DNA from: a virus
Lineage: Duplodnaviria; Heunggongvirae; Uroviricota; Caudoviricetes
Virus record (IMG/VR): IMGVR_UViG_2563366941_000004
DNA length: 4,260 bases
Reading direction: 5' to 3' (one strand)
Under the pieces are notes generated by a model. The model was not told the DNA's origin, ran no database searches, and saw only the letters and a list, made by a program, of their open reading frames with translations. A program made the position numbers and the translations under genes. Below, piece after piece: positions 1 through 4,260 of this stretch (positions within the stretch are counted from its first letter, which is position 1; each line of letters begins with the position of its first letter).

Positions 1-111
1 GTCAAAAATTTCACCGTCAAAGCGTTTTTTGTCCCGTAACGCTAAAGTTACCGTAACTTTATTCTCAAAATTGCGGATCCCTTTCACAATCAGTTCATAG
101 TTTTGAGTCAT
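1..111 (-). CDS. Small phage lysis-cassette protein, possibly DUF1327/YdfR-like; N-terminal 37 codons only (continues beyond window start)
   Basis: Minus-strand ATG at 111..109 with GGGAGAG inside the holin 3' end, 7 nt upstream. Frame is open to the window edge (MTQNYELIVKGIRNFENKVTVTLALRDKKRFDGEIFD...). It sits directly downstream of the pinholin, as ydfR does after essQ in K-12 Qin prophage as I recall it. Family assignment is from memory, not a search. Confidence 0.45.
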   Translation of the reverse strand, partial: MTQNYELIVKGIRNFENKVTVTLALRDKKRFDGEIFD

Positions 112-115
112 TGAA

Positions 116-331
116 TTACTCTCCCCGTGCAGCCTTACGACGGTCCTCTCTGATTTTGAAATACAGGTTAGTCAGATATGTCAGCAGCCCAAACAGCAGA
201 CTCCCCAGCACGCCTATTGCCGCCCACTGAGACGGGGAAACCCTGTCCAGCAACTGCAGGAACCAGTAGCCCGATCCCACCGCTGACGTGGTGTATGACA
301 CACCTGTTGTGATTTTTTCCATCTGGTACAT
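116..331 (-). CDS. S: Class II pinholin, phage 21 S21-like / EssQ-like (71 aa, dual-start Met1/Met4)
   Basis: The ORF-track protein ends ...[51 protein letters not shown], which I recognise as very close to the S21 pinholin family. Likely start is ATG 331..329 (MYQMEK...) with GGAGA about 6 nt upstream; a second in-frame Met at 322..320 reproduces the S21 71/68 dual-start layout. Stop TAA at 118..116. The 97-aa version starting at 409 is an over-extension. Confidence 0.85.
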
Positions 332-366
332 ACCCCGTCTCCCGTTATCCGGAAGCTGACAACAAT

Positions 367-397
367 AAAAAAAGCCACCAGTTAAGTACTGATGGCT
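367..397 (-). terminator. Putative rho-independent terminator between nanS-p and the pinholin gene
   Basis: Minus-strand RNA would form GCCAUCAG / CUGGUGGC (8 bp including one G.U) with a 7-nt loop, followed by UUUUUUU (plus-strand A-run 367-373). Judged by eye, no folding energy computed. Confidence 0.5.
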
Positions 398-481
398 CTG
401 ATAACTCATGCAGGCATCTCAGACGACCCACTGACACTACCGGTGAGTTTAACGATACCTTCCATTTGGCTGGCTCACTTT

Positions 482-2335
482 TTATGATGATGCCGGTGCA
501 TTTATCTCCAGCACCAGACTTTCTATCTCAACGCCATACGCTGCATTTTTGGTAATATCCGTCAGCGTCAGCGCATTCAGCCCCAGTGTCAGACTGTCTT
601 TTATGACCTGGAATGCCGGGCCAGCCACTCCATTCAGTTTCGGAGTAACCGTGGCACTGCCGGCGGTGAACACCAGCTCCAGCGTCTGCCAGTCGTTACT
701 GTAATTCCCGAACTCGCCCAACTTTGTGTTTCCTGCTTTCTTGTGATGCATCAGATTCAGTTTGCCGTCTGTGGTCTGGGTGAAGAACGACATCAGGAAC
801 GGGTTACCAGTCCCGGTCATCGCCACGACGTCAGGTAACGCTACATCGGTATACAGATAAATTCCCAGACCGAACTGATTGTTGGTCAGTGCGCCTGACA
901 GTCGAAACTTACAGCTCAGTCTGCCACCCCGTGTCAGCAGGGAGACTGCGTCATCCACCGGGCGCGTCAGGGACCAGGCTTTATTGCTCTGCTTGGTGAT
1001 CTTAAATACACCATCTGACAACTGAATTCCGCCATTCTTAATGCTCCAGCCCTGCGCAGCAGCGTCTCCGGCTGTCGGCAACAGGGAGATTGTGCGTATG
1101 GATGCATCTTCAGACGGCCCCGATGGCGTGTCGCCGCCGGGCGAGAGTTTGATTTCCGGTGCCTTACCACTAATGAAGGCTAAGGTGCGACCGGCTACGT
1201 TCAGAATAGCAGTTGCCATACGATCGGGAATAATGCCACGACGCGCCCATGAGCTGAAATGCGTCGGGCGATTTGATGATACCCAGTTTTTGTTCGTTCG
1301 GGATGCCGAACCGTAATAACCAGACCCGACAATATCAGGATCTTCTGACGGGTTGTTTGTCGGTGTATTAACTCCGCTACCATCGGTCATAAAGGGAACA
1401 AAATAAATCTGCTGGGATTCTTTACCTTTATATGCACCATATACCACTTCATATTGCGTACCGTGTTCTTGTTTCCACGCGTATGTCGTGTCGCCACAAA
1501 TCCAGGGGACTGATGCCGGACTTCCACCGTGACACTGCGCTGCCAGCCCGGCAAGGTCAGCACGGAACTGCTGTACCATTGCAAGAAATGCTGCTGGCTG
1601 CTGGGCGTAACTGGCATTCGTCATATCGAATTCCCCCTGCATCCAGCATATCGCCAGCAAAACGTTTTTCGGGTTTTTCTGCAATGCTGCCTTCGTGCGG
1701 AAAAGCAGATCCTGATATAACGGCTTACCCACTCCCCAGCGAGCCGAATCCTGACTGGCTCCCGTGGACTCGCTGAATGTCCCCTCCGTGCCCTGGGTGA
1801 ATGCCGAACCACCACGACAGCATGGTACCAGCAGGATCCCCGCATTATTAGGGATATACGGAAGCAGTTTTTTGGCAATATGTAAGCCCTGTCCGACACA
1901 GCCGTACTGCCCTTTGCTCAGGTCAGCCCGGGGATGGTTAATCGTACTCATATCCTGAACATCATGCAGACAATGGTCAGCAGGAATGATGTCGTTAAAT
2001 ACGCATACTTCACCACCGGGAGTCACTGTGTTACGACGGGCCAGTTGCTTAATGCGCGGATGGGGCGCATCGTATGAATCCGGAAGCGGAAGCCCTTCAC
2101 CGTAAGCCATGGCATTGGATTGCCCGGCCAGTACGATGACGTAGTACCACTCCGGCTCAGTTGCACCACTGACGACCACATCACCTTCTGCTGCAATCGC
2201 CTGCATCAGGGTATAAGGGGTTATGGCCACCGGACTACCAAACGGCTGCCAGCCCTCCTTCAGTTTTTGTGTCAGTCGTTTCGCAAGGTCTGACGGCGAT
2301 GCCGCCCTGACCACGTCATAGTGTTTAAATGCCAT
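482..2335 (-). CDS. nanS-p: Prophage NanS-p family 9-O-acetyl-sialate esterase (N-terminal DUF1737-like extension + SASA/SGNH esterase core + ~230-aa C-terminal domain)
   Basis: 617-aa ORF, ATG 2335..2333 with GGGAGG SD upstream, stop TAA at 484..482. Contains VLAGQSNAMAYGEG (GQSN motif, putative catalytic Ser73) and collinear blocks I recall from E. coli NanS/YjhS (LPLPD..APHPRIKQLAR, VPCCRGGSAFT, CWMQGEFD, GDTT, FSSWARRGIIPDR). Position between tRNAs and holin matches the nanS-p locus of Stx and related prophages. Confidence 0.85.
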   Translation of the reverse strand: MAFKHYDVVRAASPSDLAKRLTQKLKEGWQPFGSPVAITPYTLMQAIAAEGDVVVSGATEPEWYYVIVLAGQSNAMAYGEGLPLPDSYDAPHPRIKQLARRNTVTPGGEVCVFNDIIPADHCLHDVQDMSTINHPRADLSKGQYGCVGQGLHIAKKLLPYIPNNAGILLVPCCRGGSAFTQGTEGTFSESTGASQDSARWGVGKPLYQDLLFRTKAALQKNPKNVLLAICWMQGEFDMTNASYAQQPAAFLAMVQQFRADLAGLAAQCHGGSPASVPWICGDTTYAWKQEHGTQYEVVYGAYKGKESQQIYFVPFMTDGSGVNTPTNNPSEDPDIVGSGYYGSASRTNKNWVSSNRPTHFSSWARRGIIPDRMATAILNVAGRTLAFISGKAPEIKLSPGGDTPSGPSEDASIRTISLLPTAGDAAAQGWSIKNGGIQLSDGVFKITKQSNKAWSLTRPVDDAVSLLTRGGRLSCKFRLSGALTNNQFGLGIYLYTDVALPDVVAMTGTGNPFLMSFFTQTTDGKLNLMHHKKAGNTKLGEFGNYSNDWQTLELVFTAGSATVTPKLNGVAGPAFQVIKDSLTLGLNALTLTDITKNAAYGVEIESLVLEINAPASS

Positions 2336-2528
2336 GAATCCTCCCGGGCGGGATAATGTTGTGAGTCAGATAAGGAGCAGGCTGAAGTCCGGAAGTTACA
2401 GGACAATGGCAGAAGGGAGACTACAGCCCGCAATTCGAAAAAGACCGCGCAGTTGCGCAGAGTGATTACTATGGGGTATTATTCGCCAGCTGAAATATTA
2501 CTTCACGTTTTATTGTTTATTCCTTGCC

Positions 2529-2557
2529 GCCCGCGTCTCCCAGCGCGGGCTTTTTTT
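2529..2557 (+). terminator. Putative rho-independent terminator on the plus strand, divergent from nanS-p
   Basis: GCCCGCGU (2529-2536) pairs with GCGCGGGC (2543-2550), an 8-bp GC-rich stem with a 6-nt loop, followed by TTTTTTT (2551-2557). On the minus strand the same hairpin is not followed by a U-run. Confidence 0.5.
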
Positions 2558-2561
2558 GTCC

Positions 2562-2588
2562 ATAAGAAAGCCCCTCCGGAGAGGGGCT
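2562..2588 (-). terminator. Putative rho-independent terminator at the minus-strand end of repeat copy A
   Basis: Perfect inverted repeat AGCCCCTC / GAGGGGCT (2569-2576 / 2581-2588) with a 4-nt loop; on the minus strand it is followed by UUUCUUAU. Confidence 0.5.
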
Positions 2589-2797
2589 AAAGCCGCGTAT
2601 CTGTATCATCATGCACATGGTGCCGGGTGCCTCCCGGTGAGTTCAGCCCGGTGCCACTAAACCCGCGTCATTCTCGTTTTGATAATCAGAGATTATACCG
2701 TCACCAGTCGCCCCTCCGCTCAGGGGGATTCACCATGCGAAATTTTTTTAACAAATGCCCAGTCTGACAGGCAACTGTCAACTTACTGAATTGTGAG
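2568..2797. repeat. Structured repeat unit, copy A (diverged direct repeat of 3055-3265)
   Basis: Shares perfectly conserved blocks with copy B: aagcccctccggagaggggct (2568-2588), catggtgccgggtgcctcccggtga (2616-2640), gcccctccgcNcagggggattcaccatgc (2710-2738, one mismatch), tttaacaaa (2747-2755), ctgaattgtgag (2786-2797). Sequence between blocks is diverged with indels. Confidence 0.8.
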
Positions 2798-2833
2798 CAA
2801 CATAGCATTTAACGGGGAACCTGTTTTCTGCAG

Positions 2834-2861
2834 TAAAAAGGCCCACCGGAGCGGATGGGCC
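2834..2861 (-). terminator. Putative rho-independent terminator just upstream (minus-strand sense) of repeat copy A
   Basis: GGCCCA (2840-2845) pairs with TGGGCC (2856-2861) around a 10-nt loop; on the minus strand it is followed by UUUUU (plus A-run 2835-2839). Confidence 0.45.
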
Positions 2862-3048
2862 TGGAAGGATAGCGGTCATGTGATGCCGGTTTCCCGGTAA
2901 CTCAGCACCGGTATCTGAGTCAACGTTTTCTCTACTGGGTCATTTCCGATACGCCCTGCCTGCTGACAGGCTTTCATCACATCTGAAAATATAGCACCCT
3001 GACTGATACTGTAGTACCTAAGGTTCCAGAAACTGTGATGTATCCGGC

Positions 3049-3075
3049 ACAGAAAAGCCCCTCCGGAGAGGGGCT
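3049..3075 (-). terminator. Putative rho-independent terminator at the minus-strand end of repeat copy B
   Basis: Same AGCCCCTC-CGGA-GAGGGGCT hairpin (3056-3075); on the minus strand it is followed by UUUUCUGUG. Confidence 0.5.
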
Positions 3076-3265
3076 GGAGAGTGGCGCTATGTGCCATTGC
3101 ATGGTGCCGGGTGCCTCCCGGTGAATTCAGTACCAGCACCTGAATCCGCGATTATCCCATATACCTACTCGCTGATTGCCCCTCCGCACAGGGGGATTCA
3201 CCATGCCAGTTTCTTTTAACAAACTCCCCGCAAACCAGACAACAGTCAACCGCCTGAATTGTGAG
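3055..3265. repeat. Structured repeat unit, copy B (diverged direct repeat of 2568-2797)
   Basis: Conserved blocks at 3055-3075, 3100-3124, 3178-3206, 3214-3222 and 3254-3265 match copy A in the same order and orientation. Confidence 0.8.
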
Positions 3266-3271
3266 ACATTT

Positions 3272-3295
3272 AAAAAAAAGCCCGCAAAAGCGAGC
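3272..3295 (-). terminator. Putative rho-independent terminator immediately downstream of the tRNA cluster
   Basis: Minus-strand RNA: GCUCGC-UUUU-GCGGGC (6-bp stem with one U.G) followed by eight U (plus A-run 3272-3279). Starts 16 nt after the 3' end of tRNA-Arg(UCU). Confidence 0.6.
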
Positions 3296-3310
3296 CAGGG
3301 AAAATAAGTG

Positions 3311-3387
3311 TGGCACGTTGTACTGGATTCGAACCAGTGACCGATTGCTTAGAAGGCAATTGCTCTGTCCGGCTGAGCTAACAACGC
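3311..3387 (-). tRNA. tRNA-Arg (anticodon UCU), 77 nt, CCA encoded
   Basis: Manual cloverleaf on the minus strand: acceptor GCGTTGT/ACAACGT (G1.U72), D-arm GCTC-AGCCGGACA-GAGC, anticodon arm ATTGC-CTTCTAA-GCAAT (UCU), T-arm ACTGG-TTCGAAT-CCAGT, discriminator G, CCA. Third position in a trio that resembles the ileZ-argN-argO cluster of phage 933W (recalled). Confidence 0.8.
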
Positions 3388-3400
3388 AGGATACAGATAA

Positions 3401-3477
3401 TGGACCGCCTTCGGGGACCCGAACTCCGCGCAACCAGCTTCGAAGGCTGGCGCTCTTTCCTGATGAGCTAATGGCGG
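3401..3477 (-). tRNA. tRNA-Arg (anticodon UCG as read), 77 nt, CCA encoded; non-canonical features, possibly degenerate
   Basis: Manual fold: D-arm GCTC-ATCAGGAAA-GAGC, anticodon arm CCAGC-CTTCGAA-GCTGG (perfect 5-bp stem, U33, anticodon UCG, A37), T-arm CGGAG-TTCGGGT-CCCCG. Deviations: C1-G72 start, A.A mismatch at 6:67, A.C mismatch at 52:62, G at position 58 where A is near-invariant. Confidence 0.6.
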
Positions 3478-3484
3478 TATGTGA

Positions 3485-3560
3485 TGGTGGCCCTTGCTGG
3501 ATTTGAACCAGCGACCTGGCGATTATGAGTCGCTCGCTCTCACCACTGAGCTAAAGGGCC
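3485..3560 (-). tRNA. tRNA-Ile2 (anticodon CAU, lysidine-type, AUA-decoding; ileX/ileZ-like), 76 nt, CCA encoded
   Basis: Minus strand GGCCCTTTAGCTCAGTGGTGAGAGCGAGCGACTCATAATCGCCAGGTCGCTGGTTCAAATCCAGCAAGGGCCACCA. Perfect 7-bp acceptor stem, anticodon loop CTCATAA, T-loop TTCAAAT. Very close to the E. coli ileX sequence as I recall it, so Ile2 rather than Met is favoured, but the anticodon alone cannot distinguish them. Confidence 0.8.
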
Positions 3561-3569
3561 GGGAGCAGA

Positions 3570-3598
3570 ATAATAATGGTGCGTAATTAATTCTGCAA
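3570..3598 (-). promoter_or_regulatory. Putative sigma70 promoter for the tRNA cluster
   Basis: Minus strand: TTGCAG (3598..3593), 17-nt spacer, TATTAT (3575..3570), then 9 nt to the tRNA-Ile2 5' end at 3560. Motif match by eye only. Confidence 0.4.
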
Positions 3599-3609
3599 TC
3601 TCATCCGTT

Positions 3610-3936
3610 TCAAACGATTAAATCCTGAACTTCCCTGACTGTCTGCTCAAAACGTCCGGTCTCCAGTTCAACGCCAATCGCACGACGCCCGAGCGCCAGT
3701 GCCGCTTTTACCGTTGAACCTGAGCCCATAAAAAAATCTGCAACCAGGTCTCCCGGACGACTGCTTGCGCTGATTATCTGCTGCAGCATTTCTGCCGGTT
3801 TTTCGCACGGATGTTTCCCGGGATAGAACTGCACCGGTTTATGCGTCCAGACATCGGTATACGGCACCTGCGCTGTCACGCCAAAATACCGCCGCAGTCG
3901 GCATTCACAACCACAAGCGTGTTTAACGTACTGCAC
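3610..3936 (-). pseudogene. 5'-truncated beta-class DNA (N6-adenine/N4-cytosine) methyltransferase, C-terminal ~108 codons only
   Basis: Translation carries the C-terminal signature ...KHPCEKPAEMLQQIISASSRPGDLVADFFMGSGSTVKAALALGRRAIGVELE (HP-x-x-KP and FxGSGST AdoMet motif I). No DPPY motif or N-terminal half. The frame is closed by an in-frame TGA at 3945..3943 two codons upstream of the only start, a GTG with no Shine-Dalgarno. Upstream 3946-4039 is AT-rich and not MTase-like. Confidence 0.65.
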
Positions 3937-4039
3937 AGCTTTTCAGACATAAAAAGGCCGCCTGATAGCAGCCTTTTCACATTAAAATTAAGTTTTTCTT
4001 TACTCTGTAGTATGGGAAATTAGCATTCCCTACTGGGTT

Positions 4040-4260
4040 GGTAATGACTCCAACTTATTGATAGTGTTTTATGTTCAGATAATGCCCGATGACTTTGTCA
4101 TGCAGCTCCACCGATTTTGAGAACGACAGCGACTTCCGTCCCAGCCGTGCCAGGTGCTGCCTCAGATTCAGGTTATGCCGCTCAATTCGCTGCGTATATC
4201 GCTTGCTGATTACGTGCAGCTTTCCCTTCAGGCGGGATTCATACAGCGGCCAGCCATCCG
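4040..4260 (-). mobile_element. IS1 insertion sequence, partial (right-end 221 bp; element continues beyond window end)
   Basis: 4040 onward reads GGTAATGACTCCAACTTATTGATAGTGTTTTATGTTCAGATAATGCCCGATGACTTTGTCATGCAGCTCC..., which is the reverse complement of the IS1 right end (terminal inverted repeat plus insB 3' end) as I recall it, continuing to the window edge. Confidence 0.9.
4055..4260 (-). CDS. insB: IS1 transposase InsB, C-terminal part (partial, 5' end outside window)
   Basis: Minus-strand frame ends ...[58 protein letters not shown] with stop TAA at 4057..4055, 16 nt inside the IS1 terminus, matching the InsB C-terminus. Confidence 0.8.

Follow-up and report, generated by a model that had tools for sequence, protein, structure and literature searches.

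What stands at the site of the Shiga toxin (Stx) operon in a prophage that has the late region of a Stx phage and carries no toxin genes? The question is raised by a 4,260-nt stretch of viral DNA (Caudoviricetes; IMG/VR record IMGVR_UViG_2563366941_000004), called the window here, whose positions serve as coordinates throughout. Its late-region genes all lie on the minus strand, and a 975-nt gap (2336-3310) without a credible gene separates the tRNA gene argO from the esterase gene nanS-p. We consider it very probable that the window comes from a stx-negative, lambda-like Escherichia coli prophage of the Sakai Sp4 type, where it covers the stretch that directly follows the late promoter PR', that its upstream end is cut by IS1, and that the 975 nt are a small RNA (sRNA) gene cluster of this module. 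The cluster would belong to the module with or without the toxin, and would not be filler in the toxin's place. This type of locus has already been described (Tree et al., 2014), and nothing found here contradicts the published picture of morons and sRNAs close to PR'.

The comparison with Stx2 phage 933W locates the toxin site. A preliminary description of the window, made from its sequence, had noted that the order of a tRNA trio, nanS-p and an S-type holin gene matches 933W, and this was borne out by ARAGORN, Rfam, Pfam and blastn against 933W. The genes ileZ-argN-argO, nanS-p and a class II holin gene occur on the same strand and in the same order as in a Stx-converting late region. Neither stxA nor stxB lies between Q or the tRNA genes and nanS-p, and the junction is contiguous. 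In blastn, 90% homology extends from upstream of the tRNA genes to window position 3273, which is the end of the 933W terminator labelled 'upstream of the stx genes'. Beyond it, 933W has 1335 nt (positions 3410-4744 of its sequence, L004), with stx2A, stx2B and short flanks, to which nothing in the window corresponds. Homology restarts at 3268 (unit A of the gap, described below; 71%) and at 2796 (unit B on into nanS-p; 78%) and includes the holin gene S. The synteny with Stx-phage late regions therefore holds, and the units of the gap do correspond to sequence that flanks stxAB, namely that downstream of stx2B in 933W.

The point of insertion can be read closely. The window has an intrinsic terminator after argO (3272-3296, minus strand, from a terminator scan), which corresponds by homology to the one that precedes the stx genes in 933W and whose T-run ends at the stx2AB insertion point of Stx2 phages. 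The junction in the window reads ...GCGGGCTTTTTTTT AAATGTC TCACAATTCAG..., whereas 933W has ...GCGGGCCTTTTTT ATATCTG... to the left of stx2AB and ...TAATCTGTG TCACAATTCAG... to the right. All Stx2a, Stx2c and Stx2d phages listed in the junction search lose the alignment at position 128 of the query (window 3273). Searches of the gap for Stx2A and Stx2B by tblastn (E up to 100) gave a best E value of 1.9, a chance match, and blastn-short with the whole 933W stx cassette gave only chance words of 10-15 nt in the gap, with no stx coding or promoter remnant. Because homology breaks at 3273 and 3268 and no stx remnant is present, the toxin site is an empty gap of about 4 nt (window 3272-3269). The repeats start immediately downstream of it. 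They had been thought to occupy the toxin site, but in Stx2 phages such a unit normally follows stxB on its downstream side. Similar short words flank stx2AB in 933W, ATATCTG (L004 3410-3416) and TAATCTGTG (4737-4748), and the empty site has AAATGTC; these words could be chance or the trace of an insertion.

The same empty junction is widespread. Frequencies were counted over 5426 complete E. coli genomes, and the contiguous arrangement of argO, terminator and unit was found in 1008 of them, including the type strain ATCC 11775 and O157:H7 strains, as well as in 10 phage records. This bears on whether the gap is the scar of a Shiga toxin operon deleted from a former Stx phage, with repeats that were left over or rearranged afterwards. 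The flanks are collinear with those of Stx phages, the breaks coincide with the edges of the stx2AB cassette, and repeated loss of stx has been considered as a possibility for related loci (10.64898/2026.05.13.724894). A scar is nevertheless very unlikely. The gap is without stx-derived coding or promoter remnants, and the clean junction is common to those 1008 genomes across many lineages at 95-99.5% identity, among them the type strain and the non-Stx prophage Sp4. The units also lie downstream of stx in toxin-bearing phages and are therefore not a product of its loss. Three origins had been offered at the outset. The footprint of toxin loss found nothing in its favour in the tblastn search with Stx2A/B or the blastn-short search with the 933W cassette. 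A stx-negative relative with an empty moron site is the right reading, supported by the 933W breakpoints and the empty junction. The breadth and cleanness of that junction make a site never occupied or long empty the likelier reading, with precise loss as the alternative. To call the region Stx-phage-like is correct as to synteny, but the arrangement is not special to Stx relatives, as Sp4 and the genome counts make clear.

If the toxin site is empty, what are the 975 nt downstream of it? They had been taken to contain two structured units; there are in fact three on the minus strand and a fourth, convergent, on the plus strand. The repeats themselves are real, with Rfam E values (given below) that put them well outside chance, and include an 88-nt direct repeat that is 80% identical. 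Unit A (3045-3265, minus strand; terminator 3075-3056), of the EcOnc27 type, matches the Rfam family STnc100 (RF02076) from 3235 to 3045 with 136.3 bits (E = 4.8e-31). Unit B (2558-2797, minus strand; terminator 2588-2569), of the Stx2a-phage type, matches it from 2767 to 2558 with 165.4 bits (E = 1.6e-38). Both cover the full model (positions 1-206) above its gathering score of 47 bits and are members of the family. Unit A' (2833-3006, minus strand; terminator 2862-2839) scores 30.1 bits (E = 7e-4), which is below that threshold. It is a diverged STnc100/PasD-like paralogue and, by its shared architecture and compensatory changes, a relative of STnc100 and not a curated member. Unit B is about 78% identical to the region downstream of stx2B in 933W, and matches in Stx2a phages include unit B at about 90% identity.

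Homologues of these units are known as RNAs. The convergent Hfq-bound sRNAs EcOnc02 (AsxR) and EcOnc27 lie 3' of stx2B, and the same organisation is found at the 'moron insertion site' of Sp3, 4, 9, 10, 11, 15 and 17 (Tree et al., 2014, PMC4104026). Northern blots show EcOnc27 as RNAs of about 235/247 nt, of which the 247-nt one loses stability when Hfq is missing (PMC4104026). The EcOnc27 probe has the reverse-complement sequence of the STnc100 unit in 933W. STnc100 has also been placed 75 nt downstream of the stx2 operon (PMC12370729), and the quantitative PCR primers of that study match unit A exactly. In our searches STnc100 stands right after stx2B in 933W (L004 4778-4983; 208 bits) and is followed by AsxR on the opposite strand (88 bits). 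It was also found in a Stx2a phage (160 bits), and phage phiSTEC1589-Stx1c (L009) has two tandem copies directly downstream of stx1B (3398-3609 and 3671-3884). In Stx phages one or two units follow stxB. The phiSTEC1589-Stx1c phage is without tRNA genes between Q and stx1A.

The second group of homologues is PasD, which was detected by northern blotting and shows Hfq-dependent stability (PMC8550237). In structure PasD is a relative of STnc100, and its place is directly upstream of the esterase gene (bioRxiv 10.64898/2026.05.13.724894). PasD1 and PasD2 of enteropathogenic E. coli (EPEC) E2348/69 resemble the units of the window in a 5' motif (GCAUGGUGAAUCC...GGAGGGGC), in the -10 region and in their position upstream of nanS-p. 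They differ in the 3' seed and terminator and match STnc100 only weakly, PasD2 with 41 bits and PasD1 with 38. PasD itself was considered as an identity for the units and rejected, as blastn aligns only the shared 5' 26-42 nt.

The units share one scaffold. Minimum-energy folds were computed sequence by sequence, and the independent folds of A and A' agree in an 8-bp closing helix, three enclosed hairpins, a single-stranded linker and a terminator. The fold of unit A has an extra weak fourth hairpin of 4 bp, which was excluded from the pair count. That count was made on an alignment of eight units: the three of the window, those of 933W and one Stx2a phage, and three of Escherichia phage PhiR5_2. 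Pairing is kept in 96.6% of cells, and 12 of the 34 pairs have changes on both sides. In a control with slid partners 37-52% of cells pair and 1-4 pairs are changed on both sides, and the observed values were reached in none of 500 shuffles. In the A' type, four of these double changes turn the closing helix from GCAUGGUG/CACCAUGC into AUGUGAUG/CAUCACAU.

The conservation of RNA pairing speaks against a coding function. Mechanical open reading frames (ORFs) do exist in the gap, and small proteins could be read from those of 87 and 93 amino acids on the minus strand or of 42-46 amino acids on the plus strand. The gap had been described as free of ORFs approaching the size of StxA or StxB. The absence of a credible gene stands, but the 87- and 93-amino-acid ORFs, about as long as StxB, lie within or across the gap and share sequence with structured RNAs or tRNA genes. 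'Hypothetical protein' features have been placed there by PGAP and by phage annotators, and the plus strand yields a faint YmjE-like Pfam match (2627-2767, E = 0.05). That small proteins are encoded is nonetheless highly improbable. No Pfam family is matched at threshold, and a search of five gap ORFs at E up to 1 returned only this sub-threshold match. The 93-amino-acid ORF traverses two tRNA genes, PGAP's own feature is flagged as a partial pseudogene, and neither a comparison of the units nor one with 933W shows the ORFs to be conserved, in contrast to the RNA pairing. The ORF with the YmjE-like match (46 amino acids; 14 bits, with a cutoff of 27) is antisense to unit B, and the match may be chance or may reflect a YmjE-like family that overlaps STnc100-type loci. 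'Hypothetical protein' genes or pseudogenes are annotated over sRNA units on either strand, at L003 9824-9949 (window 3091-3216, plus strand), L002 3239-3406 and L009 3357-3790; these calls are probably spurious.

Could the units instead be cis elements of the late operon, that is, stacked terminators, antitermination checkpoints or homology arms for moron exchange? They lie between PR' and the lysis genes, and the terminator scan found ten terminator-like sites in 2200-3700 where 1.9 were expected. Their copy number varies by recombination within the units, and moron cassettes (stx1, stx2 and other ORFs) always abut them. We regard this explanation as very unlikely, because the homologues EcOnc27 and PasD accumulate as discrete Hfq-associated RNAs and form target chimeras, and because a multi-helix scaffold with compensatory changes exceeds what a terminator needs. 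The two kinds of role, in cis and in trans, are not mutually exclusive.

The fourth element supports an sRNA cluster from the opposite strand. The segment 2365-2557 (plus strand) holds a candidate sRNA of the EcOnc08/21/42 type, the type also represented by the EPEC RNA E2348C_1409.E2348C_1408.IGR, and was delimited by a terminator, a promoter-like site and an alignment of the 3' end. The terminator hairpin (2529-2550; z-score -4.1) is followed by seven T residues, up to 2557. Of 54 columns aligned between window 2504-2557 and the 3' end of the EPEC RNA, two are mismatches and two are gaps. The EPEC RNA forms chimeras with cfa, dppA, tir and others in RIL-seq (ligation of interacting RNAs followed by sequencing) through a GGCAAGG target motif, and it has been stated to be the homologue of EcOnc08/21/42 of enterohaemorrhagic E. 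coli (EHEC), which is about 271 nt on northern blots and comes from prophage Sp4. The complementary CCUUGCC seed is kept in the window, and the EHEC northern probe corresponds to the homologous stretch at 2449-2490. By its 3' part, its probe region and its convergent position upstream of nanS-p, the element belongs to the EcOnc08/21/42 type, and its context is the same in EPEC prophage PP6 and in Sp4. A promoter-like site at 2329-2357 (plus strand) would give an RNA of about 190 nt, close to the 182 nt estimated in EPEC. Its 5' end may lie at about 2365-2376 or at an internal start near 2503.

The convergent element sits in the position of AsxR in 933W. It was not accepted as AsxR (RF02703) or AgvB (RF02702): neither has an Rfam match at E up to 1 in the window, and the AsxR alignment is poor, compared with 88 bits for AsxR of 933W. 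A weak match to OmrA-B (25 bits, E = 0.11) was attributed to the terminator. Within the convergent sRNA and antisense to it is a terminator-like hairpin at 2438-2460 (minus strand; CTGCGCAACTGCGCGG followed by TCTTTTT), which both 933W and Sp4 retain and which is similar to the PasD terminator. Read-through transcripts of unit B that overlap the convergent sRNA could end there.

How might such a cluster work? Units A and B (STnc100, equivalent to EcOnc27) and A' are tandem paralogues built on one scaffold and lying on the strand of the late transcript, with the fourth, candidate sRNA oriented convergently in the slot that AsxR takes in Stx2 phages. In a lysogen each sRNA would be transcribed from a weak sigma-70 promoter of its own, which is TTGnCT-17-TTAAAA for A and B and TGcTATATT for A'. 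Transcription would stop at the terminator of each sRNA, and the product, bound to Hfq, would base-pair by its variable linker or seed with mRNAs or sRNAs of the host and of islands. After induction, Q-modified RNA polymerase would pass the tRNA, sRNA and nanS-p terminators and reach nanS-p and the cassette of holin and endolysin. The promoters proposed for A and B are based on homology with PasD. Its estimated 5' end is the G of GCAUGGUG, and the TTGACT-17-TTAAAA upstream of it aligns with a conserved TTTGTTAAAA before units A and B, where the -35 element is TTGtCT or TTGcCT. Unit A' has an extended -10 element, TGcTATATT, instead of a promoter of this type.

Several points weigh against an sRNA cluster. 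A consensus promoter scan found no minus-strand promoter for the units, and the promoters proposed for A and B match the consensus poorly. The 5' ends are uncertain, as EcOnc27 measures about 235/247 nt, the Rfam model covers 206 nt and PasD starts at GCAUGG; the units may have a long form that starts near 3265 (A) or 2797 (B), or a short, PasD-like form that starts with GCAUGG at 3206 (A) or 2738 (B). In the terminators of A and B the U-tract is not continuous. Unit B, folded on its own, has a minimum-energy structure unlike that of the family, but its Rfam alignment follows the family structure. Expression of the sRNAs from the locus in the window, A' included, is predicted from sequence, and the regulatory role and targets of STnc100 are putative.

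Unit A' is the only item of the locus for which no description was found. Its single-stranded linker, GACCGCUAUCCUUCC, differs from that of A and B. It occurs in 671 of the 5426 E. coli genomes and in 5 phage records, none of them Stx-converting. We tentatively propose, as a possibility that we would not yet favour, that A' is a functional and so far unnamed sRNA that forms a third branch of the STnc100/PasD superfamily and is confined to stx-negative prophages in these collections.

Which known prophages share the arrangement? Among the closest is the lambda-like prophage Sp4 of E. coli O157:H7 Sakai (ileZ1-argN1-argO1, EcOnc08/21/42, ECs_1088 nanS-p), which has the same tRNA trio, terminator and empty junction, a unit 98.3% identical to unit A, a convergent sRNA of the same type and a nanS-p of 617 amino acids. 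It differs from the window in having a single STnc100 unit, so that the window has about 470 nt extra (the tail of A, A' and the body of B), and in an identity of only about 83% downstream of the units. The join between the window and Sp4 lies in the terminator sequence AGCCCCTCTCCGGAGGGGCT, whose 20 nt are identical in A and B. The late region of 933W/Sp5 (Q, ileZ argN argO, stx2AB, EcOnc27/STnc100, AsxR, L0105 nanS-p, S R Rz) has the same order and orientation; it carries stx2AB, one unit and AsxR, whereas the window carries three units and an sRNA of the EcOnc08/21/42 type. Phage 933W is also of a short-tailed type, in contrast to the lambda-type head genes of the prophage that hosts the window. 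Prophage PP6 of E2348/69 is like the window in layout, and its single unit is split by ISEc13 (L007 1601-3150). The tRNA cluster of PP6 has only the Ile gene and one Arg gene. PhiR5_2 (PV340546.1) has the same array of three units, strong, weak and strong in score (139, 30 and 130 bits), with nanS-p and holin genes after it, but it is only 78% identical and lacks tRNA genes upstream.

Since Sp4 and PP6 have one unit each and the window has three, copy number varies from one to three. The change likely arises through unequal or inter-prophage homologous recombination within the units. The triple-unit form is old, because PhiR5_2 carries such an array at 78% identity. The whole 975-nt arrangement (at least 80% covered) was found in 353 of the 5426 genomes and in one phage record, PhiR5_2.

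On the esterase side, the gene nanS-p (482-2335, minus strand) encodes a prophage sialate O-acetylesterase of 617 amino acids, with Pfam matches to DUF1737 (57 bits), SASA (48 bits) and DUF6645 (70 bits). NanS-p proteins are defined by their domains and also occur in non-Stx prophages (PMC10462455). The ORF has a SASA domain with an N-terminal DUF1737 and a C-terminal domain and lies upstream of the lysis cassette, and its predicted product is a NanS-p. PGAP names it 'SASA family carbohydrate esterase', and it is homologous to L0105 of 933W. The spacer between nanS-p and the holin gene (332-481) is only about 150 nt long and contains one strong intrinsic terminator (371-399, minus strand). A segment of about 430 nt that carries PasA in prophage PP2 of E2348/69, or L0106 in 933W, is absent from this spacer, and the presence of PasA/PasC between nanS-p and the holin gene was accordingly rejected.

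The holin gene (116-331, minus strand) has 71 codons and encodes a class II holin of the phage-21 S type (Pfam Phage_holin_2_1, 'Bacteriophage P21 holin S', 110 bits), with 93% nucleotide identity to S of 933W. The 71-codon form is probably the true gene and the 97-codon ORF (116-409) over-extended; PGAP annotates the holin of near-identical genomes as a 216-nt gene. We infer that the holin may be of the pinholin type and work with a signal-anchor-release (SAR) endolysin, as the Ala/Gly-rich N-terminal segment of the lysozyme of strain VR50, YGLSAAVLALIAAGAPAP, would be compatible with a SAR domain. The window begins with the 5' part of a YdfR/DUF1327 gene (1-111, minus strand; 56.8 bits), annotated in VR50 as a YdfR family protein.

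The three tRNA genes are on the minus strand and were identified by ARAGORN and Rfam. The first in transcription order has the anticodon CAU and is of the ileZ type (tRNA-Ile2, 3485-3560; tRNA-Ile in PGAP), identical to 933W ileZ at 76 of 76 positions. The third is a tRNA-Arg(UCU) of the argO type (3311-3387), with 75 of 77 positions identical to 933W argO. Between them lies a somewhat degenerate tRNA-Arg(UCG) of the argN type (3401-3477), which has 70 of 77 positions identical to the 933W copy (7 differences) and an Rfam score of 43 bits, compared with 55 for 933W. It has an A-A mismatch in the acceptor stem as well as mismatches in the T stem, and it may be decaying.

Upstream of the tRNA genes is a C-terminal fragment of an N6/N4 DNA methyltransferase (3610-3936, minus strand), a pseudogene that matches Pfam N6_N4_Mtase with 86 bits over profile positions 134-219 of 221. 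PGAP labels the VR50 copy 'incomplete; missing N-terminus'. The remainder of the window (4040-4260) we take to be the terminal sequence of an IS1 element: identity with VR50, ML35 and others stops at 4039, and an overlapping match is annotated as an IS1-like transposase. Some 100 nt upstream of the methylase fragment the prophage gives way to this IS1 end, which replaces the upstream sequence (Q, kinase and phosphatase) present in relatives. The truncation of the methylase predates the IS1 insertion, because relatives free of IS1 carry the same truncation. Once IS1 is set aside, the remaining 4039 nt match many E. coli chromosomes at 99.9% identity, ML35, VR50 and BEN2908 among them. Because IS1 starts at 4040, the antiterminator Q and PR' lie outside the window; they are present in prophages of that identity such as VR50, and in the source genome IS1 may have separated Q and the late promoter from the late region seen here. 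The VR50 prophage has the order Q, Ser/Thr kinase, PP2C phosphatase, methylase fragment, tRNA-Ile and two tRNA-Arg, 975-nt gap, SASA esterase, class II holin, YdfR, lysozyme, Rz, and then terminase, portal and protease of lambda type. From this gene order the prophage is lambda-like and has a late-regulatory module in common with Stx phages.

The importance of these findings beyond annotation is small. They explain a stretch that genome pipelines have left blank or given spurious 'hypothetical protein' calls, and they fix the insertion point of stx to within a few nucleotides in a toxin-free relative. The number of sRNA units varies from one to three, independently of toxin carriage. Toxin-free junctions of this kind are comparators for the movement of stx cassettes, and multi-copy arrays are possibly relevant to the study of prophage Hfq-dependent sRNAs. 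If unit A' is indeed functional, the three-unit array would be a 'seed-diversified' sRNA family on one scaffold at the moron site.

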